Source: Bdellovibrionota bacterium
GTDB taxonomy: Bacteria > Bdellovibrionota_C > UBA2361 > JBGSMV01
Assembly (NCBI GenBank): GCA_044356455.1
Contig: JBIKWF010000089.1
Location: forward strand, 1 to 18,887
DNA: 18,887 nt
Direction: 5' to 3'
Shown here: piece by piece, positions 1-18,887 of the stretch
How positions within the stretch are numbered: the stretch's first letter is position 1
How the letters are laid out: every line of letters starts with the position of its first letter
Notes under the pieces: model-generated
Databases searched by the model: none
Seen by the model: only the letters and a program-made list of their open reading frames with translations
Told to the model about the DNA's origin: nothing
Program-made: the position numbers and the translations under genes

Positions 1-15
1 AACAGCAGCGCCAGC

Positions 16-3000
16 ATGCGCCTACATCTCGCCCCTGAGCGAGCCAGCAAACGTGCGCCTCGCACGGCGCAGCCTGAAATAGATCCTGATTTGAGTAAGG
101 CCCGTGACCTGGTGGCAGCGATGAACGCACTTACTGCTCAGTGGGGCTCTCTGCCTCGGGCAGCTGACGAAGCCACCCCCCGGGATCAGTCACCAGACTT
201 TGAGGGGATGTCGCGCGCGGATCTCGAAACCTTTATTTCAAAGACGGTAGCCAGTGCTGAGAAACTGCTTAAAGCTCGTGGCGAACTTAGCACCGAGAGT
301 AGAAAGCTATCCAATTTACTCGCCGATGACAGGGCGTACTCACCCGGTGAAATCGTCTCAACCACACGCTCATATATAGAACGATTCTCAGACAATCAAA
401 GATCCCTCATTGCCCTACTTCCCGACATTGACGCGCTTGCAGTTGCGCAGGGCCGACTTGAACGCATTCAATCTCAAGAGTTCGGTGTTTCGTCATATGC
501 AGTTGCCCAGGAGCAAAGTTCAGATCTCGTTACGCGCACGAATAATCTTTCTCTCGAGTATCGCGGGCTCGGCGGGCTTTTCAATCGAGGCGAAATAAAT
601 CGCTTGTCGGCCGCGCGAAAGAAATTGGAGCCTCTCTTTGAGCTCTCGGACAAAGCTCAAGAGCAAGAGACTATTGCCCGTACCGTGCGTAGCGAAGCGT
701 TCTCGCACCAAGCCGCACACACGGTAATCGAGAGGGCGGCAGCGGCGTTGCTGGATTCAGCGGGCAAGCTGCTAAGCAGTAGCGTGGAGGCGACGAGGAA
801 CTCTACTGAGCGCACACCACCCCCCAAGCTACTAGAGAGCCTTCAGGAACGATTCGTGTCAGAGGTTGTAGTGCCGCATCTTGAGACGGGATTACGCTGC
901 GCCTTTCCACGAATTGGAGCTGCGGAACTCCACCGAAAGGCAGTTGAATTGGGTAATCTAACTCTCGCCGCGGGCTCGCGGAGGGACGATCCAGCTTTAA
1001 CAGCGGCCCTAAAGGAATATAGCTACGCGGTGTCCGGAGCAGTCTACGCGATACAAGAAATGACCAAGGGAGGTCTTGCCGAGACCATTGCTAACCAATG
1101 GAACGTGGCCATCAAACTAAGCGACGCTGGCTGGCGAAACGCGGTGCCTGAAATTCTTTCCCAATTTAATACCGCGGCCAATTCACTTTCTGGGATGCCT
1201 ACAGCTTTAGGAACTTACGGTTTCTTCCTTCCCGGGCTTCATGACTTTGACCACAAGCTGGCGGAACTTCGGAATCGCACGGCCTCAGTCGCAAGAGAGG
1301 TCCACGAACAACTCTCGCCGCACGTTCTGAACTTACTGTTGGCGGATAGCAGCGTGACGGCAATACTTGGCCCCAAAAGCGCGGCCTCGATTCGCAGTCT
1401 GGTGTGCGATCATGCCACGAGGGCTGCCATCGCTACTTCACCGTATGCTGACGCGGGATACGGCATAACCGAAAAGCTCTATCTTGGGAGAGAGCCGAGA
1501 GATGTAGGGCGCGCAATTTTGTTCTCTTACTATTATCGTGGCCATCATGGCACCTGTCCACTCGTGTACCCTTCTGACACCTTTCGGGACGAAAAGCCGC
1601 GGCCGCCACCTCTAAGGCAATATCTCACGGTACTAACAGATGCCGAGGCGCAATCGGCGATTGGAGCTTCAATACCTGGCCTGAGTGACCTTGTGCAGAT
1701 CGGACGGAACTCGCGCACGAGTTCCGCCCTGTTTGTGGGCCGAACTGAGGTATCAGGGTTCGCAGCGATGGCCCACGAACGGGCCCGTGCTGCGCTTGAG
1801 GATCTCTCGGTTCACTTCATAACAGAGGGCTCTCCAGAAGAGGCCGAAGCAGCTGTTGCAGTACTTGGAGGTATTGGAAAGCCGCTTGAGCCAGGGACAA
1901 TTGCCGCGTTACTGGAAGGTTGCAGGAACGAAACTTCCGCCTCCCGAATGACCGCTGCAGTCGCTAAGCTTGCCCCAGATCTACTTGGTAAATCGTCGAG
2001 GGAAGAGTATGCCCAGCTCGCCAAAGAATTCTTAAGACAAATTGGCGGGGAAAGAGACAAGCCTGGCGTGAACGCCCAAGAGGCTGAGCTTATTCGGAGG
2101 GTTCTCGAGCGACCTCTCGATACGGCCACCGTGTCCGCCATCTCTCGTTTGACAGGGGCAGGCCAAAGTGAACTTCGTGTATTGAATAACCATTTGGTCT
2201 CGCTTAGTGGCTTCGAAGATATTGGACTAAGAGAAGTACTGCGCCTAGCCGACAAGACTTTCTGCGAGACTCTTGCCTCAACCGCGGCGCTTGTATCCCA
2301 TCCAAAATTTGCCGACGCTATACAATGTCTGCGCCCCCCTGAGTCTAAAGCTTCCGGGTATTTCAGAATTGACAATAATAACCTTGCGCTGATGCCCCTC
2401 ATTGTCGAACAGCACACCGAGATAGCGGCTAGTATCGCGAGGATGAGAGTACTAGATCCGAACTTTAGCTACCGCGCGCATCCAGTGGGCCCAGTGACAT
2501 CGCCCGAACTCATGCAAGCAGCAATCGATCCTATTAATGATTTGCTGCGGCAGCGCACCCATGATTTGGCAGCCTGGTATGCGGAGGTGGCTTCGAACCA
2601 CCCAGAGGAGAGCAAAGCACTGACTGAGGTGGTATGGAAAGCTGCCAGGGCCACGAATGCAACTGAAGAGGTCTTGGTAGCACTGCTTTCTGCGGAGGAG
2701 AGGAGCAAGGCAGAGGCATTTAGAGAGAACGTAGTTGCTCTCACTGGAACACTGAATTCCAAAACGCGAAATGAAACGGTTTCGATTCCGAGGCGAATAT
2801 ACCAAAACAAGGCGGTGCTTTCAGATCTTGCGGCAGAGCCCTCCCGATTTGCTGACGTAGCAAAAAACCTGGAAAGTCATCTTGCAGCGCTCTCTACCCA
2901 AATAGCCGATAAAGACGGTAAAACTATTAACCACGAGGTACTTTTCTTCTATCTGCGCCTCCCGCACGAGATCCTGGGAGATATTGTTGCTGCCAAGTAT

Positions 3001-5331
3001 TCAAGCGCTGCGCTTTCGGCCATTGTATTTCCAACCATGTCTCAGGCGGGTGAGCGGGAGATCACCGCCAAGATGTTTGCTGAGAAGATTTCGGGGTCGC
3101 ACCCACTGGTCTCGGACAAATATACGGTTGAGTATCTTACCACGCAGCTTCAGGAGCACCCGCAGCTTCAAGGAAAGCTGCTCGCAGCTGCAGTAACAAA
3201 CTTCGCGCAGATTAGCCGGGACGATTCGGCGCATATTCTCGCCGCCACCACCCTGATAAACGCCCTAGGAGATGAAGGATTTGCTCAGGGACTACAAGCC
3301 AAAATTGAAAGCCGACAAATTACGAATGCTGCCTCGCTCTCACAGGTAGCTTTACAAGACGCCGCACACTTGCTCAGTGCTCGATATCCGGAATCCTTAG
3401 TCGCTGAATTTCCTGCTGAGCATGCCGGGAGATTTATCGAGGTAGTTAGTGCCTTCGAAAAGACACTGGCGCGTTTCAATCGAACTGAGCTTATTGCGCC
3501 CTTTCGGGTGCTTGCCACTGTGGAATTGCTGGGCGCCGAGGAGAAGTTCCGAACTGGTAACAAGAAGTTCTTTGCCGAGCTCGATGCCAAGATAGCAGAG
3601 TTGTTTGTTGTTCCTGCTGAGCACGAAGCGGTGCGAGGCTATCTCAGGGAGTACCATGAGCGTGGGTGGTTACCGCGACTTATGCCATCAATGAATCCCG
3701 CAGACCGAGAGACCGCGCTCGAGCTTTGGAACGACCCACGGCACAAGCTTGACCATGTCTTGACTGAAGTGACGGCGGAAGATCGGGTGAACTCAGCCTT
3801 TACTCAGCTTGAAGCACTCTTTCAAGGCGGGCATCTGAGTGCTGAATTTAGAGCTGCCCATCGCCTCGCCGAAACTCGAAATCCTGCCGAAGAGCTGGGA
3901 CGCCGCTGGCGAGCAGCAGATGCTGTTGAGAAAGCCTTGAAGAAAGGGACAGCTGCGGAGGCGAGTACGGCAGACGACGAAGAGATGGTGCGCGCGCTGA
4001 TCGCGGAACTAGGAGCAGCCTCACGAGAGACAGCGCTCGTGCGCTTGGGGCAAATAAAGTCAACCACCCAAAATGAGCAGAAACGGCTCAAGGACTGGGA
4101 GGATCTCCGCAAGTTCGGCATAAGCTACAGCCATAAGCTGGGTGGATATCTTGAGAGATTTAGTGATTCAAGACGTAGGCTCGGTCAGTTTGTGCCAGAG
4201 CTTGAAGAGCTTGGGTTTAGTTTTGTTGATTCCTTCCAGGTCAAGGTATTTCGCGGAGAGCTGAGCGTGCTTAAGCGTGAGCTTGAGAAAGAAGGAAGGA
4301 CTCAAGGAAAGAGCCGCCGCATCAGAGACGAGGGCCGGCGAATGGAAATGGTGGCCATAGTTGAAGAGTTAGATCGAGTGGTAAGCGATGCCGAAGGGTA
4401 TCTGCAGACAGTCTCCGGACAGCTAAAGAAAGTACTGCCGCGCATGGAGGCTAAGGCCGTCTGGGCGCAAGGTCTTGCACAAGATACCAGCAAGGGAGCA
4501 TCTGATCTCCTCGCTGCGATTCGAGAAAAGGATCCGAGCTTGGCTGCGCACCTTAATCAGACCATCTCTGAGGTTACCTTGGAGGTGGAGCGAGTCAGTA
4601 AGGTTCGGCAAGCTCTTGTCGCATATGGAGATCAAACTGCGATGGGAGATATTAAAGGACTTCTAAGTGCACTTTCGGCTGATAGCCAGGCGCAGCCGGC
4701 CGTGTTCACCTACCAAGCAGAACATACCTTCTCTAGAATGTTGCATGCGCTAAAGGGTCAATGTCTCGACTATAGAAGCAATAGAAATAGTATTGGAAAC
4801 AGCCCCTACACGGTCTCGTTTCAGGATCCCTTTAGGCAAGTAGTAGTTGGCTATGATGAGCAAGGAACCGCACGCTTCAACGCACTTGTTTATCTCGCCC
4901 CAGTAGCAAAGGTCAGTCCATCAGCCAAAGAGCTGCCCAAAGAAATATCCTCATCAGCAGACTGCTGCATCGTGCTTGATCCACCGTATGTTCCTGATGG
5001 CTCGCCTCTGACTCGTACCAAGATGGATGGCTATCTGGATTACGCAATCCTCAAATCAGCGGTAACGGGACTTCCTGTGGTCATTCCCTCCACTGTTGCT
5101 CGGCAAATGGCGGCCAGCAGCGATAAGCGGCAAGAACTCCAGGTGCTTGAGAGCGAAGCCGCTAATCTACGCTCGCGAGGATTGGACGCCGTTGTTGAAC
5201 ACGTGGATGTTGGTATCATCACCGGCCCAAGTGGCAGCACTTACTGCGAGATAGTGGGATTTGATCCTTATCGCACGGACGCCGTGATTCGGACTTTGGC
5301 TGTGGTGATCCGTCCCAAGGAAATTGCTTAA
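16..5331 (+). CDS. Very large uncharacterised protein (1771 aa): long helical/coiled-coil body plus a C-terminal alpha/beta domain
   Basis: 5.3-kb uninterrupted ORF rich in Ala/Leu/Glu. Coiled-coil-like stretch at about aa 1340-1545. C-terminal ~210 aa has alternating strand/helix segments (QCLDY, FRQVVVGYDEQG, FNALVYL, IVLDPPY). The frame has no stop from base 1, so the true start may lie upstream of the window. Confidence 0.9.
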   Translation: MRLHLAPERASKRAPRTAQPEIDPDLSKARDLVAAMNALTAQWGSLPRAADEATPRDQSPDFEGMSRADLETFISKTVASAEKLLKARGELSTESRKLSNLLADDRAYSPGEIVSTTRSYIERFSDNQRSLIALLPDIDALAVAQGRLERIQSQEFGVSSYAVAQEQSSDLVTRTNNLSLEYRGLGGLFNRGEINRLSAARKKLEPLFELSDKAQEQETIARTVRSEAFSHQAAHTVIERAAAALLDSAGKLLSSSVEATRNSTERTPPPKLLESLQERFVSEVVVPHLETGLRCAFPRIGAAELHRKAVELGNLTLAAGSRRDDPALTAALKEYSYAVSGAVYAIQEMTKGGLAETIANQWNVAIKLSDAGWRNAVPEILSQFNTAANSLSGMPTALGTYGFFLPGLHDFDHKLAELRNRTASVAREVHEQLSPHVLNLLLADSSVTAILGPKSAASIRSLVCDHATRAAIATSPYADAGYGITEKLYLGREPRDVGRAILFSYYYRGHHGTCPLVYPSDTFRDEKPRPPPLRQYLTVLTDAEAQSAIGASIPGLSDLVQIGRNSRTSSALFVGRTEVSGFAAMAHERARAALEDLSVHFITEGSPEEAEAAVAVLGGIGKPLEPGTIAALLEGCRNETSASRMTAAVAKLAPDLLGKSSREEYAQLAKEFLRQIGGERDKPGVNAQEAELIRRVLERPLDTATVSAISRLTGAGQSELRVLNNHLVSLSGFEDIGLREVLRLADKTFCETLASTAALVSHPKFADAIQCLRPPESKASGYFRIDNNNLALMPLIVEQHTEIAASIARMRVLDPNFSYRAHPVGPVTSPELMQAAIDPINDLLRQRTHDLAAWYAEVASNHPEESKALTEVVWKAARATNATEEVLVALLSAEERSKAEAFRENVVALTGTLNSKTRNETVSIPRRIYQNKAVLSDLAAEPSRFADVAKNLESHLAALSTQIADKDGKTINHEVLFFYLRLPHEILGDIVAAKYSSAALSAIVFPTMSQAGEREITAKMFAEKISGSHPLVSDKYTVEYLTTQLQEHPQLQGKLLAAAVTNFAQISRDDSAHILAATTLINALGDEGFAQGLQAKIESRQITNAASLSQVALQDAAHLLSARYPESLVAEFPAEHAGRFIEVVSAFEKTLARFNRTELIAPFRVLATVELLGAEEKFRTGNKKFFAELDAKIAELFVVPAEHEAVRGYLREYHERGWLPRLMPSMNPADRETALELWNDPRHKLDHVLTEVTAEDRVNSAFTQLEALFQGGHLSAEFRAAHRLAETRNPAEELGRRWRAADAVEKALKKGTAAEASTADDEEMVRALIAELGAASRETALVRLGQIKSTTQNEQKRLKDWEDLRKFGISYSHKLGGYLERFSDSRRRLGQFVPELEELGFSFVDSFQVKVFRGELSVLKRELEKEGRTQGKSRRIRDEGRRMEMVAIVEELDRVVSDAEGYLQTVSGQLKKVLPRMEAKAVWAQGLAQDTSKGASDLLAAIREKDPSLAAHLNQTISEVTLEVERVSKVRQALVAYGDQTAMGDIKGLLSALSADSQAQPAVFTYQAEHTFSRMLHALKGQCLDYRSNRNSIGNSPYTVSFQDPFRQVVVGYDEQGTARFNALVYLAPVAKVSPSAKELPKEISSSADCCIVLDPPYVPDGSPLTRTKMDGYLDYAILKSAVTGLPVVIPSTVARQMAASSDKRQELQVLESEAANLRSRGLDAVVEHVDVGIITGPSGSTYCEIVGFDPYRTDAVIRTLAVVIRPKEIA

Positions 5332-5346: not shown

Positions 5347-7344
5347 TCAAGCATTAAGCCACTGTGATATTTTTTCAACTACCACAGGTGGAGTGAACCC
5401 AAATTTCTCAGCCAAGACTCCCCCTGGAGCTGAGGCACCAAAGTGGTTAATTCCAAGCATGAGGGCGTCGCACCCAACAATCCTCTCCCACCCTACCGTT
5501 GTCCCGGCCTCTATAAGGACACGCTTGGCACTCCGCGGAATGAGAGTTGCCTGATAGCTTGCCGACTGCTTGAGGAAAAGTTCCGCGCAGGGCATGGATA
5601 CTACACGTACTGATTTTCCCTTAGCACCGAGCTGTTTCGCGGCATCCACCGCAACCCAGACCTCAGAGCCGGTCGCAACAATCACCACTTCAGGCTTCTC
5701 AGCTTCGACGACCACATAGGCGCCCTTAAGCACATCCTCTGGCACAAAATTCTTTGGTCGTTCAAGAACGGGAAGATCCTGGCGAGTAAAGAGTAGCACA
5801 CTTGGCGCGTTCTTTGTCTCAAGCGCAGCCATATAACTCATGGCAACCTCCAGACCATCCGCAGGACGATACACATAAGTATTAGGGATAAGACGAAGAC
5901 TCTGAATATGTTCTATCGGCTGGTGGGTCGGACCATCCTCGCCTACCCAGAAACTATCGTGTGTAAAGATAAAGAGAGACTGCAAGTGCGAGATTGCGGC
6001 AAGGCGCACCGTGGGCCGCATATAGTCAGAGAAAACCAAGAACGTTGAGCCATACGGAATCCAGGAGCGAGTATAGGCGAGGCCGTTTACCGCTCCCCCC
6101 ATTCCATGCTCACGAACCCCGAAACGCAGATTCCTGCCCACAAATGCGGGGGCTTGAACATCAGGACTATCTTTAATGAGCGTCTTCGTAGACGGTTCCA
6201 AATCCGCTGAGCCACCAATAAAGTACGGGATATGCTTCGCAATCACTTGGATCGCTTTTCCGGAGAGATTTCGAGTCGAATCCTTCTTGCTCTCTCCTAG
6301 TGTCTTGATCAGATCGTTCTTAAGTCCACTGGGAATAAGACGCTCTGCCTGAGCACGCCACAGCGCAGCTTTGCTTGGGTTCTTCTCGCCCCAAGCTTTA
6401 AATGTGCTATGCCACTGGGCGTATGCTTTTTTCTTCTGCTCAACCATCTTTGAGCAGAAACCCGAAACTTCTGGGGGAACAAAAAATGAGGGTTCGCTGG
6501 GCCACCCAAGAGCTTTCTTGAGACCCGCCAGCTCTTCAGCTCCAAGCGGAGCGCCATGCACTTCGGCATCACCTGCCTTATGAGGAGCACCAAAGCCAAT
6601 GGTGGTGCGAGCACAAATGAGCTTGGGCTTCCCTTTCTCCGCAACTGCGCGCTTGAGGCACTCGCGCATTTCATTCTGGTTATGACCATCACAGCTTTGA
6701 ACATGCCAACCGTAAGCTTCAAATCGCTTAGGAACCGACTCGGTGAAGGTAACCTTGGTATCTCCACCAATAGAAATATGATTGTCGTCGTAAATATAAA
6801 TCAGGTTATCGAGCCCAAGATGGCCCGCAAGCGAAGCAGCCTCATGTGAGATTCCCTCCATGAGATCTCCGTCACTTACAATCCCGAAAACGCGGTAGTT
6901 AAAAATTTCAGGAGAGTATTCTTGGGCGAGAAGCTTGCCCGAAAGCGCGAGACCCACCCCGTTCGAGAAACCCGCACCGAGGGGACCTGTCGTCGTCTCT
7001 ACGCCAGTAGTAAATTCGAACTCGGGGTGACCTGGCGTCTTACTACCCCACTGCCGAAAGTTCTGAAGTTCGGACATGGGGAGATCGTAGCCGAACAAAT
7101 GCAGCAGGGTATAGAGGAGCATGCAGCCATGCCCCGCTGAGAGGACAAAGCGATCGCGGTTTGGCCAATGCGGGTCTTGCGGGTTAAATTGAAGCGTCTC
7201 AGCCCAAAGGACAGCAGCATAATCAGCGCTTCCCATCGGCATGCCTGGATGACCTGATTTCGCCTTTTCAACTCCCTCCGCCGCGAGTACGCGTAGAGCG
7301 CTCGCTAACCCCGCTACTGAGCCAAAGCTATTATCCATAATCAT
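5347..7344 (-). CDS. tkt: Transketolase (copy 1)
   Basis: Motifs [33 protein letters not shown], ThDP motif SDGDLMEG...[35 protein letters not shown]. Start is probably ATG 7344 or 7338 rather than the TTG at 7359. Confidence 0.97.
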   Translation of the reverse strand: MIMDNSFGSVAGLASALRVLAAEGVEKAKSGHPGMPMGSADYAAVLWAETLQFNPQDPHWPNRDRFVLSAGHGCMLLYTLLHLFGYDLPMSELQNFRQWGSKTPGHPEFEFTTGVETTTGPLGAGFSNGVGLALSGKLLAQEYSPEIFNYRVFGIVSDGDLMEGISHEAASLAGHLGLDNLIYIYDDNHISIGGDTKVTFTESVPKRFEAYGWHVQSCDGHNQNEMRECLKRAVAEKGKPKLICARTTIGFGAPHKAGDAEVHGAPLGAEELAGLKKALGWPSEPSFFVPPEVSGFCSKMVEQKKKAYAQWHSTFKAWGEKNPSKAALWRAQAERLIPSGLKNDLIKTLGESKKDSTRNLSGKAIQVIAKHIPYFIGGSADLEPSTKTLIKDSPDVQAPAFVGRNLRFGVREHGMGGAVNGLAYTRSWIPYGSTFLVFSDYMRPTVRLAAISHLQSLFIFTHDSFWVGEDGPTHQPIEHIQSLRLIPNTYVYRPADGLEVAMSYMAALETKNAPSVLLFTRQDLPVLERPKNFVPEDVLKGAYVVVEAEKPEVVIVATGSEVWVAVDAAKQLGAKGKSVRVVSMPCAELFLKQSASYQATLIPRSAKRVLIEAGTTVGWERIVGCDALMLGINHFGASAPGGVLAEKFGFTPPVVVEKISQWLNA

Positions 7345-7448
7345 TCCAGCAAGATACAAAAAAAATCAAAAAAGCCTGGAGCAAATTCTCACAAACTCGG
7401 GAACTACATTAACCAGGGACTTTTCCTTCCCTTTGGCTTCCTACTACA

Positions 7449-9573: not shown

Positions 9574-11502
9574 TCAGATATCGACCTCAAGTCGATGCGC
9601 GTTGTCCTGAATGAGGCGATAGCGCTCTTGTGTCTCTTTTCCGAAAAGGCTCTCTAAAACTTCTACAACCTGCTTTTCGTCATCCACACGCACCCGCATC
9701 AAGGTTCTCGTCTTCGGATTCAAGGTGGTCTCCCAAAGGGTCTTAGGATTCATTTCACCCAGTCCTTTGAAGCGAGTGATATGCAAATTCGAAGTCTTCG
9801 CGCGCTTCTTAAGAAACTCTTCCTTCTCAGCGTCTGAGTAAACCCAGTGCTCTTCCTCTTTTGAACCTGAACCGAAACGGAGCCGATAAAGAGGCGAAAG
9901 AGCAATATAGAGATGACCGCCATCTACGAGCGGACGCATGAACTTAAAGAAGAACGCCATGAGCAGAGATGCGATGTGCATTCCATCAGCATCAGCATCG
10001 GTCAGGATGATAATTCTTCCGTACCGGAGGCGATCAAGATTGCTTCGCTCTCCAAGTCCGCAACCAATCACCGAGACAAGATCAAGAAGCTCTTTGTTCT
10101 CCTTAAGCTTTGCCTCGGACGCAGCGATAGAATTCAGAACTTTACCACGCAGCGGCAGTACCGCTTGAGTTTCTCGATCGCGCCCTTGTTTCGCACTACC
10201 ACCTGCGGAATCTCCTTCCACAATGAAGAGTTCGGTATCGCCAGGACGGTTCGACGAACAATCAGCAAGCTTCCCCGGCAAGTTGAGCCGATGCGCGACG
10301 CCAATCTTTCGCGAGACATTCTCAGATGCCATACGAGCAGCGGCACGCGCGCGCGCCGCGCTGAGAACGCGCTCCACAATTTGAGCGGCAAGCTGCGGCT
10401 TGGAGTTGAGCGTATTCTCGAAGGACTTCGCTACCGCTTCAACAGGCCCCTCAATTTCAGGGTTATTGAGCTTATCTTTGGTTTGTCCCTGGAACTGGAG
10501 CTGGCTAATAGCACCCGGAACATTGACCGAGAGCACTCCCAGCAAGCCTTCGCGAATGTCTTCGCCGGTCAACTTCACGCCGCGGGGGACAAGATCGTGA
10601 ACGGAAAGATAATTACGAACTGCCTTAACCAGGCCGCCTTTAAATCCGTCTTCATGGCTTCCGCCTTCTGCGGTTGGAATCCCATTGACGTAGGAAAGAA
10701 CCTTTTCACTCGTTGCATCCGTCCAGCAAAACGCAAGTTCTATGCGAATGCCATCTGCGCGCTCCATATAGAAGCTTTCGCCGCCAAGGATTTCCACGCC
10801 CTGCCGAGTGACAAGCGCCGCGAGATAGGACTTGAGTCCATCATCATATTTGAACGCTTTCTCAGACCCGTCGCCTTCGTTCTTGAAAACAATGCTGAGA
10901 CCTTTGTTGAGAAACGCCTTCTCTTGGCACATCTTTTCAAGGCGCTCAGCAGAAAACTGTATCGACCGAAAAATGTCCGTGTCCGGTCTGAACGTGACCT
11001 TAGTGCCATGCTCCTTAGTTTTCGCCCCCTTCTCGAGCTTGCCTTGAGGTTTTCCTCTCTTGAAACTCTGAGACCATTCGTGACCGTCCCTTTGGACATG
11101 CACTTCAAGCTGCTCAGAGAGCGCATTCACCACAGAGGCGCCCACACCATGAAGTCCGCCAGCCGAAGTATAATTATCAGCAGAGAACTTTCCGCCTGCA
11201 TGGAGAGTCGTAAAGACTATTTCTAGGGCAGATTTCTTAAACTTTGGGTGCAAATCAACAGGTATGCCACGGCCGTTGTCCTCTACCGTGACACTTTCAC
11301 CGTCTTTATGCAGGGTCACCGTAATGGCACTGGCGTGCCCGTTCATTGCCTCATCAATTGAGTTATCAAGAATCTCTTTGACAAGGTGATGCAACCCTTG
11401 CGGGCCCTCGGTCCCACCAATGTACATACCCGGCCTGCGCCTCACAGGCTCAAGCCCTTCGAGAACCTCGATGTCTGACGCGCGGTATTCGCTCTTTCCC
11501 AT
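9574..11502 (-). CDS. parE: Type IIA topoisomerase subunit B, probably topoisomerase IV ParE
   Basis: LEGLEPVRRRPGMYIG, EILDNSIDE, DNGRGIP, LHAGGKF, GGLHGVGASVVNALS (GHKL ATPase); EGDSAGGSAKQGR, PLRGK, TDADADG (TOPRIM); RFKGLGEMN. Starts 8 nt after the A-subunit stop. Confidence 0.9.
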   Translation of the reverse strand: MGKSEYRASDIEVLEGLEPVRRRPGMYIGGTEGPQGLHHLVKEILDNSIDEAMNGHASAITVTLHKDGESVTVEDNGRGIPVDLHPKFKKSALEIVFTTLHAGGKFSADNYTSAGGLHGVGASVVNALSEQLEVHVQRDGHEWSQSFKRGKPQGKLEKGAKTKEHGTKVTFRPDTDIFRSIQFSAERLEKMCQEKAFLNKGLSIVFKNEGDGSEKAFKYDDGLKSYLAALVTRQGVEILGGESFYMERADGIRIELAFCWTDATSEKVLSYVNGIPTAEGGSHEDGFKGGLVKAVRNYLSVHDLVPRGVKLTGEDIREGLLGVLSVNVPGAISQLQFQGQTKDKLNNPEIEGPVEAVAKSFENTLNSKPQLAAQIVERVLSAARARAAARMASENVSRKIGVAHRLNLPGKLADCSSNRPGDTELFIVEGDSAGGSAKQGRDRETQAVLPLRGKVLNSIAASEAKLKENKELLDLVSVIGCGLGERSNLDRLRYGRIIILTDADADGMHIASLLMAFFFKFMRPLVDGGHLYIALSPLYRLRFGSGSKEEEHWVYSDAEKEEFLKKRAKTSNLHITRFKGLGEMNPKTLWETTLNPKTRTLMRVRVDDEKQVVEVLESLFGKETQERYRLIQDNAHRLEVDI

Positions 11503-11510
11503 ACCTGACT

Positions 11511-13820
11511 CTATACTTTTAAGCTTGTTTGTTGCGGTGCCTTCTCTACGCGCACGATATCATCGCGTACGCCGACCTTATTGCCCTTCAGGGCACGGCT
11601 ACCTTCAACTACTTCTTTACTTGAAATATCTTTGGTTTTACCGGTGGAAAGCAGCATCTGAAGCGCAGCGTTACCGCGGTGGCAGACCGCTGCGACGCAG
11701 CGATCCCCTTCCCGCACGCCCAAGAGGGAAACACCAACGGCGGCACTGTCGCGTACTGGAATTTCTTTGAATTCAATCCTAAGTCCCGAGCCTTTCTGCG
11801 AGAAGAGACTGACCTGCGTATCGGTCCCAGGCACACAAAGCGACGCTGCGCCAAGTTCATCACCGTCTCGAAGCTTCATAGCACGCTTACCGCTACGCTT
11901 AATCGACTCAAGCCCTTCAAGCTTGAGAATGAAGCCAACGCCGTCCTTGGAAACAAGGAGTACGTGATCATCATTTTTTACAAGATAAGGGTAGCCAATC
12001 TGAGGCGAGCCAGCTTCAGGCGCTTTGTCCGTTAGCTTCATGCCAAAGCTCTCTACTATTCGCTCCCCATCCTTAAACTTAAGGAGCTTTTGCACGGGGT
12101 CTCCGTAACCACTAGAAGACGGGAAATCCGTTACCTTAAGAGAGTAGAGATTTCCGTGGTTCGTGAGAAACGCCACCATATCGAGAGTTGAGAGCGGATG
12201 TGCTCGGCGAATGCCATCACCTTCACGAAGCCGAGTAGACTCAAGCTCGTTATTCTGACGAATACGCTTAATCCAACCGTCGTTGGTAACTATCGCGTAC
12301 ACATCCTCATGAACAACGTAATCTTCCTCGTTGAACTCAATTTCAATTGGCTCAGTCACGAGCTTGGAGAATCGCTTGTCACCAAAGGTCTCGCTCACGA
12401 GCTCGAGGTCCTTTTTGACGATTGAAGCGATCTTATCCTTGCTCTTAAGGATAATGTCGATCTCCTTCACTCGTCCGCCCTTCTCCTTAAGTTCCGCCCG
12501 GATTTCGTCAATGTTGGTCTTAGAGAGCTGATAGATTCGCATGTCAACGACGGCAAAGGACTGGATTTCCGTCAGCTTGAAGCGTGCCTGCAGCTTTTTG
12601 GCCGCATCGGTTCTGCCATCGCTTTTGCGCACAATCTTAAGTGCCTCATCGAGCGCGTCGTAGATTGCAATCAAGCCTTCCAGGATATGGATGCGTTCGA
12701 GGAGCTTCTTTCGCTCGTATTGCAGCTTCTTCTGAACAACTTCCTCACGGAAATTAAGGAAGTGCTGCAAGCAGTCTCTCAGCGAGAGGAGCTCAGGACG
12801 GCAGGTCGCTGGGCCACAAGGGACCAGCGCGGTCATATTAACAGGGAAGTTGCTCTCAATTGGCGTATGTTTAAATAAATATGCCATCGCCACTTCCGGA
12901 TCCGCCCCGGAGGCAAGCTCGAGAACCACTCGAACTTCGCTGGTAGATTCGTCTCGCACATCCAGGAGCTGCGGAACCTTCTTTTCGATAATTGCAGTCG
13001 CAATCTTCTCAACTAACTGCGATTTGTTTACCGCATACGGAATAGAAGAAATGACAATAAAGCGCTTACCTCGCGCCGTCTCCTCTGTTCTCCACTCTCC
13101 TCGCATGCGAATGGCGCCGCGACCCGTGCGGTAAATCTCAGTTAGTTCCTTGCGGGTATTGAGGATAAGACAGCCCGTGGGAAAGTCTGGGCCCTTGATC
13201 GTCCCCGCGAGCTTCGCGTTGCTCACCTCAGGATCCTCAAGAAGCTCAAGGAGTGCCTTTACCGTATCTTTTAAATTATGTGGGGGGATGCTTGTCGCCA
13301 TTCCCACTGCAATACCCGAAGCCCCGTTGACCAAGAGATTGGGAATACGGCTGGGCAAAACCACAGGTTCACGTTCGGTGGCATCGAAATTGTCGCGAAA
13401 ATCAACGGTTTCCTCATCGATTTCGCCGATTACCTCGACTGCAATTTGTCGCAATCTCGCTTCGGTATAACGGTAGGCAGCTGCGTTATCACCATCGACC
13501 GAGCCGAAGTTTCCCTGACCATCAACAAGCGGGTAGCGCAGTGAAAAGTCTTGCGCCATGCGAACCATGGCCTCATAACACGCCACGTCGCCATGCGGGT
13601 GATAACTCGCGAGAACCTTACCAACAATCGCCGCGGATTTTCGGTGCCCGCCATCGGGCAAGAGGCGCAAATCACGCGCCATTGAAAAGAGAATACGCCT
13701 TTGAACGGGCTTAAGCCCATCTCGCACGTCTGGGAGCGCGCGTCCCGTTACTACGCTAAGCGCATACGTAAGAAAGCGATCGCGCGATTCTCTTTGCAAA
13801 GAGGCATCAATAATTCCCAT
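11511..13820 (-). CDS. parC: Type IIA topoisomerase subunit A, probably topoisomerase IV ParC
   Basis: [29 protein letters not shown], catalytic Tyr in [22 protein letters not shown]. The C-terminal domain begins [13 protein letters not shown] with no GyrA-box (QxRGGKG). Confidence 0.88.
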
Positions 13821-15272: not shown

Positions 15273-15398
15273 TGACCAGCCCTGAGGTAATCGCCCGAAA
15301 ATATTGCTGTTAGGCGCCTCTTAGGTGTGCTACTTCCAACGCGGTATCTTTTTTCTACCGTCGCACCTTCAACTTATCTAATAACCGTGGATTCCTGC

Positions 15399-17459
15399 AT
15401 GTCCCGCATAGACACGTACAGCAAAACCGACCAACTCTGTATCAACACCATCCGCACTCTCGCGATGGACGCCGTTCAAGCCGCAAACTCAGGCCACCCA
15501 GGCACTCCCATGGCCATGGCGCCCGTTGCCTACCAACTCTGGAACCATTTTCTTAAATTCGACCCAAGCGATCCCATCTGGCCCAACCGCGACCGCTTCG
15601 TGCTCTCCATGGGTCACGCCTCAATGCTCCTGTACTCGATGCTGCATCTGACAGGCGTAAAAGCCGTGAACAAGAAATACGAGCGACTTGGGGAGCTCTC
15701 AGTTACCCTCGATGATATTAAGCGCTTCCGCCAGCTCGATAGCCGCTGCGCAGGTCACCCCGAGTACCGCTGGACCTCTGGTATTGAAACTACCACTGGG
15801 CCCTTAGGCCAGGGCGTTGCGACCAGCGTCGGTATGGCAATCGCCGGAAAGTGGATGGGAAATTATTTCAATCGTCCTGATTTTGAAATGTTCAACTACA
15901 GCACCTATGCGCTCTGCGGCGATGGGTGTCTCATGGAAGGTATTTCTAGCGAAGCCGCATCTCTCGCGGGGCACTTAAAGCTCAACAATCTTTGCTGGAT
16001 TTACGACAACAACAAAATCACCATCGAAGGCCATACCGAATGGGCCTTCTCGGAAGATGTGGCGACGCGCTTTATCTCCGCAGGCTGGAACGTCACCCGC
16101 GTAGGAGACGCGAACGATCTCGACATGCTTGAGAGAGCCTTCAAATTATTCCAGCGCACGACAGACCGGCCCACACTGATCATTGTGGATAGCCATATCG
16201 CCTGGGGCGCACCGAATAAACAAGATACCCATGCCGCGCACGGCGAGCCTCTTGGCGAAGAAGAGATTAAACTAACAAAGCGTAACTACGGCTGGCCGGA
16301 AGATGCAAAGTTTCTTGTTCCCCCGGAAGTTACGGCTCACTTTGCTTCTCGTATCGGCGCCCGAGGTAAGGAGCTTCGTGACTCATGGTTCAAGAAGTTA
16401 GAGGACTACCGCAAGAAGTATCCAGAACTCGCCACGCAGCTCGAGCAAATGCAGCGCCGCGAGCTACCAAAAGGTTGGGACAAAGATCTGCAGCCGTTCC
16501 CTGCTGACCCTAAAGGCGTGGCAGGACGCGACGCTTCAGGCAAAGTTCTTAATGCCATTGCAAAGAACGTTCCCTGGCTCATCGGCGGTTCTGCAGACCT
16601 CGCTCCTTCGACCAAAACCAGGCTCACGTTTGAGGGCGCAGGCGACTTCACGGCTCACGAAGTAGGCGGCCGCAACATGCACTTTGGCATCCGCGAACAC
16701 GCCATGGGCGCGGTGCTTAATGGTATGTCGCTCTCAAAAGTTCGTCCTTACGGATCAGGATTTCTCATCTTCAGTGATTACGGCCGGGCACCGATTCGCC
16801 TTGGCGCAATCATGGAGATTCCAACGATTCACATCTTCACTCACGACTCTATTGGCGTCGGCGAAGATGGCCCGACCCATCAGCCCATCGAGCAGCTGCC
16901 CTCACTTCGCGCAGTACCAGGCGTTCTCACGATTCGGCCTGGAGACGCGAACGAGGTTCTCGAAGCCTGGCGCATGGTAATGCAGTTCTCGCATGAGCCA
17001 ACTATTATGGTGCTCTCACGCCAGGCCCTTCCCACCGTCGACCGCTCCAAATACGCCTCAGCAGCCGGAGTCGCCAAAGGAGCCTATGTGCTTGCAGATG
17101 CGCAAGGCGGCAAACCCCAAGTGATCCTGATGGCATCGGGAAGTGAAGTATCGCTTTGCCTCTCGGCCTACGAGCAGCTCACCAAAGAGGGCATCAAAGC
17201 ACGCGTGGTAAGCATGCCTTGCTGGGAACTTTTTGAGCACCAGCCCCAAGCGTACCGGGACGAAGTGCTGCCGCCCGATGTTCGAGCACGCGTTTCGGTG
17301 GAGCAGGCCTCTACCTTCGGATGGGAGCGTTACGTTGGTCTCGATGGCGCGATGATCGGAATGAAGAGCTTTGGCGCTTCAGCACCACTTAAGGAACTCC
17401 AAAAGAAGTTTGGGTTCACGGTTGAAAATGTGGTGAGCACGGCGAAAGAGCTGCTTTAA
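15399..17459 (+). CDS. tkt: Transketolase (copy 2)
   Basis: [40 protein letters not shown]...[41 protein letters not shown] at 15399 preferred over GTG 15327. Confidence 0.97.
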
Positions 17460-18140: not shown

Positions 18141-18282
18141 ACCTATCTGTCTCCTTGCAACATGTTCTTACAGAATACCAGCAGCAATGCCATATTGCGT
18201 TACGGCACTTCTGCAGACGTTCACCACGCACTGAAGCTACTGGCCGCCAGCGGAACTTACCGAAAATTGAAGTTGCTGCGCG

Positions 18283-18381
18283 GAGTGCCTGCCGCAGAAG
18301 TGCCAAAGCCTTTACTTTTTGTGCCCGCGCCAAGAATCCGTAGTAGCGCACTCTGACGAATCCTCACGGCAGGAGATGCAG
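18283..18381 (-). pseudogene. IS91-family transposase, C-terminal fragment
   Basis: Translates LHLLP*GFVRVRYYGFLARAQKVKALALLRQAL, matching the IS91 Y2-transposase motif LHVLPxGFxRIRxYGFLA. In-frame TGA at 18364-18366; N-terminal part absent. Confidence 0.8.
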
Positions 18382-18382
18382 G

Positions 18383-18487
18383 CCGCACATGAAACAGGTA
18401 TAATTCCTCAGAATGCTTAGTGTAATTCCGCAGCCGCAAATCCTCTTTCATTCGCTCACGAAGTGGCGTAGCCCCTTTCTTAGTCAT
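18383..18487 (-). pseudogene. Tyrosine recombinase N-terminal (SAM-like) fragment
   Basis: MTKKGATPLRERMKEDLRLRNYTKHSEELYLFHVR matches the TPLRxRMxEDxxLRNYSxxTxxxY start of the integrases that accompany IS91-type transposases. RBS AGGAG upstream; similarity stops after 35 codons. Confidence 0.8.
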
Positions 18488-18633
18488 GACTTCTCCTGTG
18501 TTTGTGTAGGCTTTCGATTTCGAAATCTCCGCTCTACACAACTCTGGAGTTTTTTTCGCCAAGATTCGTTCTCGACTTTCAGATAGGCTTTGGGGCGGTC
18601 GGGTGGTGCCGTGCCCCCCCTCTCTCTTATTCA

Positions 18634-18663
18634 CAAAAAGAAGGACTGGCTTGCGCCAGTCCT
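18634..18663 (-). terminator. Intrinsic terminator-like hairpin upstream of the integrase remnant
   Basis: Minus strand reads AGGACTGGC-GCAA-GCCAGTCCT then TCTTTTTG: 9-bp stem, GNRA loop, U-rich tail. Confidence 0.55.
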
Positions 18664-18714
18664 CTATTCTTCACCACTATCGTTTCAATTAGGAACCCCC
18701 GCGATCGCGGATCA

Positions 18715-18765
18715 GTTCAGCGGCTTAAATGTGCCGCCGCGAAGCGATCGGCACGATTTGTTTGT
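18715..18765 (-). other. Integron attC-like site (the + strand is the bottom strand), interrupted in R'' by the intron
   Basis: R' GTTCAGC (GCTGAAC on -, 6/7 match to GTTRRRY); 6-nt spacer; L' AATGTGC; central hairpin with GAA loop; L'' GCACGATT with extrahelical G18755; 5-nt spacer; GT of R''. Confidence 0.65.
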
Positions 18766-18887
18766 GTACGCCCCGCATGGGCGTGAACTAGAGGGTGAAA
18801 ATCCCTTACGGAAGAATCACCGACTATGGGGATAATACTATAGGAGGGAACCGTTAGTCTAAGGCAATGGCGTCATCGTGAGATGGG
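18766..18887 (+). mobile_element. Group II intron, class IIC, 5' end of domain I (truncated by the window edge)
   Basis: GTACGCCCCGCATGGGCG...AGGGTGAAAATCCC...AACCGTTAGTCTAAGGCAATGGCGTC is collinear with the recalled Oceanobacillus iheyensis IIC intron start (GUGUGCCCGGCAUGGGUG...AGGGUGAGAGUCCC...AACAGUUAGCCUAACGCAAGGGUGUC). Preceded by TTGT and a stem-loop. Confidence 0.85.

Follow-up and report, generated by a model that had tools for sequence, protein, structure and literature searches.

The window ends in what is very probably (about 90%, in our estimate) an intron of the group IIC-attC type, inserted on the bottom strand of an attC site into its R'' box at TTGT|T and lying antisense to the cassette genes. 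By the window we mean the whole 18,887-nt stretch analyzed, which is the entire contig C54 of a 4.7-Mb assembly (G000; 216 contigs, 93% complete); other C numbers denote contigs of this genome, other G numbers denote compared genomes, and L numbers denote loci. Backward insertion of a group IIC intron into an integron-type hairpin is already known behavior, and the host here is an uncultured lake bacterium. A literature search, which left out most subscription journals, returned no papers on introns of this host. The features at the right end of the window are as follows.

18641..18664, no strand: two-way terminator-like hairpin (z -5.46), conserved in the G002, G004 and G015 units
18715..18765, plus strand: attC bottom strand up to the intron insertion point (direct reading, DNA fold, uninterrupted sites of the same family)
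18715-18721, plus strand: R' box, GTTCAGC
18722-18727, plus strand: R'-side spacer, 6 nt
18728-18734, plus strand: L' box, 7 nt
18735-18750, plus strand: loop, 16 nt
18751-18758, plus strand: L'' box, 8 nt, with the extra G at 18755
18759-18763, plus strand: L''-side spacer, 5 nt
18762-18765, plus strand: IBS1, TTGT
18764-18765, plus strand: GT of R''
18766..18887, plus strand: first 122 nt (start of domain I) of the group IIC intron, ended by the contig edge
18832..18861, minus strand: weak promoter-like site, directed outward from the intron (its nt 67-96; 9/12 matches)

A first-pass annotation, made from the letters of this DNA, had described attC-like geometry ending in TTGT at 18715-18765, and direct reading bears this out. 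The R and L boxes, the 6- and 5-nt spacers and the extrahelical G expected of an attC site are all present; in the predicted DNA fold the L box is paired 7/7 and G18755 is bulged. Because the extrahelical G lies on the 3' arm, the plus strand is the attC bottom strand. The neighboring ORFs, at 18487 and on C123, are encoded on the minus strand, which places the intron antisense to cassette genes. The strand, insertion point, position of the extra G and orientation proposed at first pass all hold. The energy of the hairpin goes just modestly past chance (z -1.74, with 9 of 200 shuffles equally good). We defined the full geometry, after the site had been seen, as an AAC or AGC core, a 7/7 L box with extra G, and TTGT. 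None of 60 first-order Markov resamples contains it, whereas the window has it once and the 4.7-Mb assembly seven times, and three of those seven sites directly precede the C54-type intron. Uninterrupted sites of the same attC family are found on C258 of G054, inside a cassette array, on C8 of G015, and on C123 of the genome itself. The one departure is the R' core at 18719-18721, which reads AGC (GCT on the top strand) instead of the canonical AAC. Judging from aligned sequences, this is probably a point change, since the same flank in G002, G004 and G015 ends in an AAC core before attC.

The intron 5' end that had been placed directly after TTGT is recovered by a covariance model (R1) built from 27 IIC 5' ends from other sources, with the window sequence excluded. 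The match spans 18766-18887 at 69.3 bits (E 9e-19) and covers model positions 1-120 of 130, cut off on its 3' side; an Rfam search of the window gave no intron family match at E<=1. The intron begins with GUACG, departing from GUGYG, and this start is normal in the lineage, being found in 45 of 46 related introns with a recognized 5' end and in both clinical introns. While the first-pass interpretation stands, it overlooked the GUACG start, the AGC core and the integrase/IS91-type remnant to the left, described below. The same intron start also ends contigs C44 and C180, each time after a canonical attC ending in TTGT, and an 84% fragment of it follows an attC-like site on C118. An exact 35-nt pattern had 0 matches in metagenome contigs, and a covariation search for the partner of intron position 3 was uninformative because nearly all rows have A. 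The outward promoter-like site lies near P1out of known IIC-attC introns (Table 3, PMC3001079); one such site against a mean of 0.4 in 50 shuffles does not go beyond chance.

Most IIC introns target terminators (PMC4424553), and an ordinary IIC intron sitting after a terminator-like hairpin that merely resembles attC would agree with a hairpin energy that is by itself weakly significant and with an imperfect R' box. We regard this reading as largely refuted and very improbable: the extrahelical G and the 6/5-nt spacers agree exactly with attC, the G054 cassette array contains homologous sites without an interruption, and the sister intron copies on C44 and C180 occupy canonical attC sites. A true terminator-like hairpin does exist nearby (18641-18664), and as it lies 100 nt from the intron it is not the intron's target.

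For insertion into the attC site, further evidence comes from beyond the contig edge. Two Logan records of 1876 and 1881 nt, from two public lake runs, begin at 18761/2 and each continue for 1750 nt beyond the window, from which a C54 intron of about 1.87 kb would follow; the median length of 40 related introns is 1921 nt. The depth of these records, which is not a copy number, is several times that of the flank, and their length and depth together fit a collapsed repeat of about 1.87 kb, a length that would hold an RT/maturase ORF. Logan runs with small word shares were left out of this comparison. Because the contig ends within a multi-copy repeat, and because every record falls short of 31 nt on at least one side of the junction (the Logan records cross it with just 25 nt on the intron side, below the tool's 31-nt bridging rule), one might suspect that a repeat end was wrongly joined to C54. 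We consider such an artefact most improbable, given that the join falls exactly at the TTGT of an attC and that records of two studies (runs X1, from which this DNA may itself stem, and X2) go from the flank to 18790 without difference.

An RT/maturase ORF and domains V and VI had been predicted to lie to the right. These parts are indeed present in relatives and in unlinked G000 fragments, but an RT search of the G000 assembly found none, so that the RT, EBS1 (ACAA) and domains V/VI are visible only in relatives and on other contigs that carry 3'-end fragments. In G000, 3' ends of matching type lie on C177 (at the contig start), C123 and C95, none of them physically joined to the C54 copy, and a mini-intron in G103 combines a C54-type 5' end and a C177-like domain VI in one molecule. 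The 122-nt intron start is matched in 5 of 61 genomes (G000 counted), and Bdellovibrionales MAGs are among the named records whose intron starts are nearly identical to it. A homolog from the same order, in G047, is 86% identical over the 122 nt and goes on to an ACAA loop (nt 203), an RT carrying YADD and an internal deletion, a maturase, and domains V/VI. Its protein has RVT_1 and GIIM domains and is 79% identical (96/121) to the maturase fragment on C95, with which it groups at 100/100.

With the G047 protein we found 80 metagenome loci, and the intron 5' end could be recognized by pattern in 46 of them. It lies directly after TTGT in 30 of the 46, ACAA occupies a closed loop (EBS1) in 28 of these 30, and the 3' exon starts with T in 38 of the 40 related introns that have a 3' end. 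In the close homologs L022 and L036, ACAA sits in a loop closed by 4 bp, placing EBS1 about 200 nt into the intron. The two plasmid matches inspected, of 25 listed, are introns about 53% identical that lie antisense to blaIMP genes, with TTGT|T junctions and ACAA, and one of them sits in a class 1 integron with intI1 annotated. In a 34-row protein tree, the homolog and the C95 fragment join an attC-flanked intron (94/94), apart from six terminator-type introns; basal support for the split between attC and terminator types is weak (79/83). At one locus (L051:16), a related intron adjoins an intron 3' end on both sides, as in a circle or tandem copy.

The first-pass annotation also expected minus-strand cassettes to the right of the intron. 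They are likely, on C123, though the connection between C54 and C123 is drawn by elimination among three assembled 5' ends and three contig-end 3' ends, the other two 3' ends running into a repeated unit with a C44/C180-type attC. On this ground we lean towards C123 as the right-hand neighbor of C54. C123 carries the end of domain VI, a 3' exon TATCT, an RDD-family ORF on the minus strand and then a second attC, which belongs to the window's family, is degenerate, and has an R' box complementary to the restored R'' core. Where a 3' exon restoring GTTRRRY had been predicted, the candidate exon on C123 restores the GTT but not the full motif. Several observations speak against the link: depth suggests more than three intron copies, the domain VI loop of C123 differs from that of C177, and the left end of C123 looks chimeric through a hairpin. 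Energies of in-silico empty sites from 12 exon pairings single out no partner, and the 11-mer common to the C54 and C123 sites occurs four times in the genome and so is no proof of linkage. An RF00029 search of G000 gave 12 matches, all in two other intron families, which were rejected as 3' partners of C54 because their 3' exons are not attC-like.

IIC-attC introns are described as inserting into the attC bottom strand at TTGT/T, with the hairpin replacing IBS2, and as lying antisense to the cassettes, and they can carry outward promoters (PMC7923331, PMC3001079, PMC4424553). By the same route, the intron RNP would here have reverse-spliced into single-stranded DNA, with the folded attC standing in for IBS2 while EBS1/EBS3 pair with TTGT/T at the target. 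The intron would then run rightwards from 18766 for about 1.87 kb, probably to C123. Because the R box is split by the intron, IntI should be unable to recombine this attC. The C54 intron shares with S.ma.I2, Kl.pn.I1, G.s.I1 and N.e.I1 the attC bottom-strand 5' exon, the TTGT/T target and the antisense orientation (PMC3001079, PMC7923331), and it resembles known IIC-attC introns in its implied length of about 1.9 kb; its close homologs also have an EBS1 of ACAA. The GUACG start is common to it and two clinical IIC-attC introns, whereas the protein of its closest homolog is just about 53-54% identical to the clinical ones and forms its own branch with the C95 fragment. Further differences lie in the target, with its AGC R' core, and in the host, a lake bacterium not in culture. 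Neither the window nor C123 showed a resistance gene. The case extends the IIC-attC introns by one host lineage and by a divergent branch of the protein, without changing any model.

To the left of the attC site, the window holds the remains of a different kind of element.

18277..18721, minus strand: internally deleted tyrosine-integrase/IS91-type (Y2) transposase unit
18277..18375, minus strand: C-terminal part of a Y2 (IS91-type) transposase, read in a different frame and containing an in-frame stop
18383..18487, minus strand: integrase start, first 35 codons (Phage_int_SAM_4-like), after which the frame loses homology
18699..18710, no strand: short palindrome just before the R' box; relatives have a similar inverted repeat there

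One group of the IS91 family has a two-gene organization with an upstream tyrosine recombinase. Both coding pieces fall below the Pfam cut-offs (integrase piece, PF13495, E 0.04; Y2 piece, PF04986, E 0.12) and align with G004 homologs, the integrase piece closely; the G004 homologs themselves match these families at E 1.4e-14 and 1.2e-18, respectively. A PF13495 search of 124 genomes gave mostly integrase-sized frames, and no intact copy of the integrase/IS91-type unit was found in G000. The region 18277-18721 is matched in 5 of 91 genomes (G000 counted), and the non-coding end of the unit recurs in G002, G004 and G015, where hairpin and palindrome are again present and an attC follows. In G004 a further attC-like hairpin lies beyond the other end of the unit, with a core complementary to the unit start, and to judge by this arrangement the unit looks like a cassette. 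By comparison with these sequences, the unit in the window is probably the last, truncated cassette, one that has no visible attC of its own on the left, and the window's attC is most likely flanked by this truncated integrase/IS91 cassette on its left and by another cassette on its right. We also considered GTTC at 18715 as an IS91 terminus, GTTC being taken as the target motif; the cassette reading is preferred because relatives have GTCC or GTTC there, all continuing into attC. Two observations touch the limits of the unit: in runs X1 and X2 there is a sequence about 90% identical to 18282-18725, either a paralog or a strain variant, that is absent from the assembly and diverges after 18725, and 38 bp at the unit's left edge (18242-18279) are 92% common to C177:33401-33438. 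The rest of the window contains two genes within 10 kb that we take to be transketolase-like (5347-7359, minus strand; 15327-17459, plus strand) and, between them, presumably a type II topoisomerase-like gene pair (9574-13820). A 1776-aa open frame at 1-5331, cut by the contig start, had no Pfam match at E<=0.1.

Since the left unit abuts attC in three relatives and looks cassette-like in one, the C54 site probably closes a small CALIN-like array that lacks an integrase, as its last attC, with a truncated integrase/IS91-type cassette beside housekeeping genes. A CALIN is taken to have at least two attC sites and no intI nearby; the window holds one attC, and C123, if linked, a second. As in CALIN and SALIN (bioRxiv 10.1101/2022.09.11.507474), attC is present here without a nearby intI. 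The integron integrase of this genome is on another contig, C92 (TIGR02249, 295.6 bits; cut-off 265), which also holds an attI-like site and cassettes bounded by attC sites whose spacers are similar. A multi-copy intron breaks assemblies exactly at attC, and the cassettes therefore land on separate contigs, which shows how such arrays stay hidden in assemblies.

Two other accounts concern the setting of the site. In the first, intron and attC are as we describe, but a single cassette was put by IntI at a chromosomal secondary site (SALIN/attG), with no array. Genomic insertion by IntI is documented (bioRxiv 10.1101/2022.09.11.507474), the top strand has G|CT at the R' junction, no other convincing attC turned up in the housekeeping DNA that makes up the left side of the window, and G000 holds many scattered copies of another attC-bearing unit. 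We nonetheless think this unlikely, as GCT does not fit the attG consensus GWT reported in the same preprint, the AAC core in the G002, G004 and G015 flanks makes AGC look like a point change, and a second attC is present on C123.

In the second account, the integrase/IS91-type end would itself be the recombination partner, a separate att site that acts like attI, captures attC cassettes and anchors arrays away from intI/attI, possibly served by its own tyrosine recombinase, with two IIC lineages at mirror attC positions (bottom-strand R'' and top-strand R'). The same element end followed by different attC sites in G000 and three relatives would be consistent with this, as would the X1/X2 variant that enters a different sequence after 18725. 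Such an anchor seems quite improbable, given the far-side hairpin with complementary core in G004, which is an ordinary cassette signature, and given that every copy seen is deleted or partial. Moreover, a cassette-forming IS91-like element has already been reported in ISShvi3, beside attC in Shewanella (PMC9229058). Like ISShvi3-type elements, the unit in the window has an integrase N-terminus and a Y2 transposase C-terminus directly beside attC, but just 35 and about 33 codons of these remain, in different frames.

Beyond the reading of the C54 site as an interrupted attC in a small array, the more interesting leads are the order-wide cassette-like integrase/IS91 unit, a top-strand IIC lineage and a chromosome-spread, ORF-less attC unit. 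The top-strand lineage is represented by a second IIC-like intron at C92:1-122 (minus strand; L016), which begins behind the GT of R' on the top strand of attC, in cassette sense, with a 5' exon ending in CCGT; its relatives are L162, L163 and L164. Top-strand junctions of this kind also occur in G034 and G049, and the EBS1 loop of the G034 intron, ACGG, is complementary to CCGT. Possible 3' ends of the C92 intron lie on C133 and C212. Top-strand insertions are mentioned as single cases only where the subject comes up in PMC7923331 and PMC9229058.

The apparently ORF-less unit has a 57-bp attC with 16 BLAST matches and varying left flanks, and its far end has 22. It is found on C44, C180, C127, C39, C68, C216, C86, C138, C36, C92, C1, C27, C116, C169 and C130, and appears to be a cassette that spreads to secondary sites; two of its copies carry the C54-type intron. 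The left ends of C40, C99, C173 and C196 are paralogs (71-84%) of the attI/promoter region on C92, all four hold the ORF-less unit, and an integrase search found no intI on these four contigs. Two more multi-copy group II families are present in G000, one on C37, C55, C90, C103, C150, C198 and C204 and the other on C85, C99, C155 and C171, with 8 and 4 RF00029 matches, and one of them inserts beside a short palindromic repeat.
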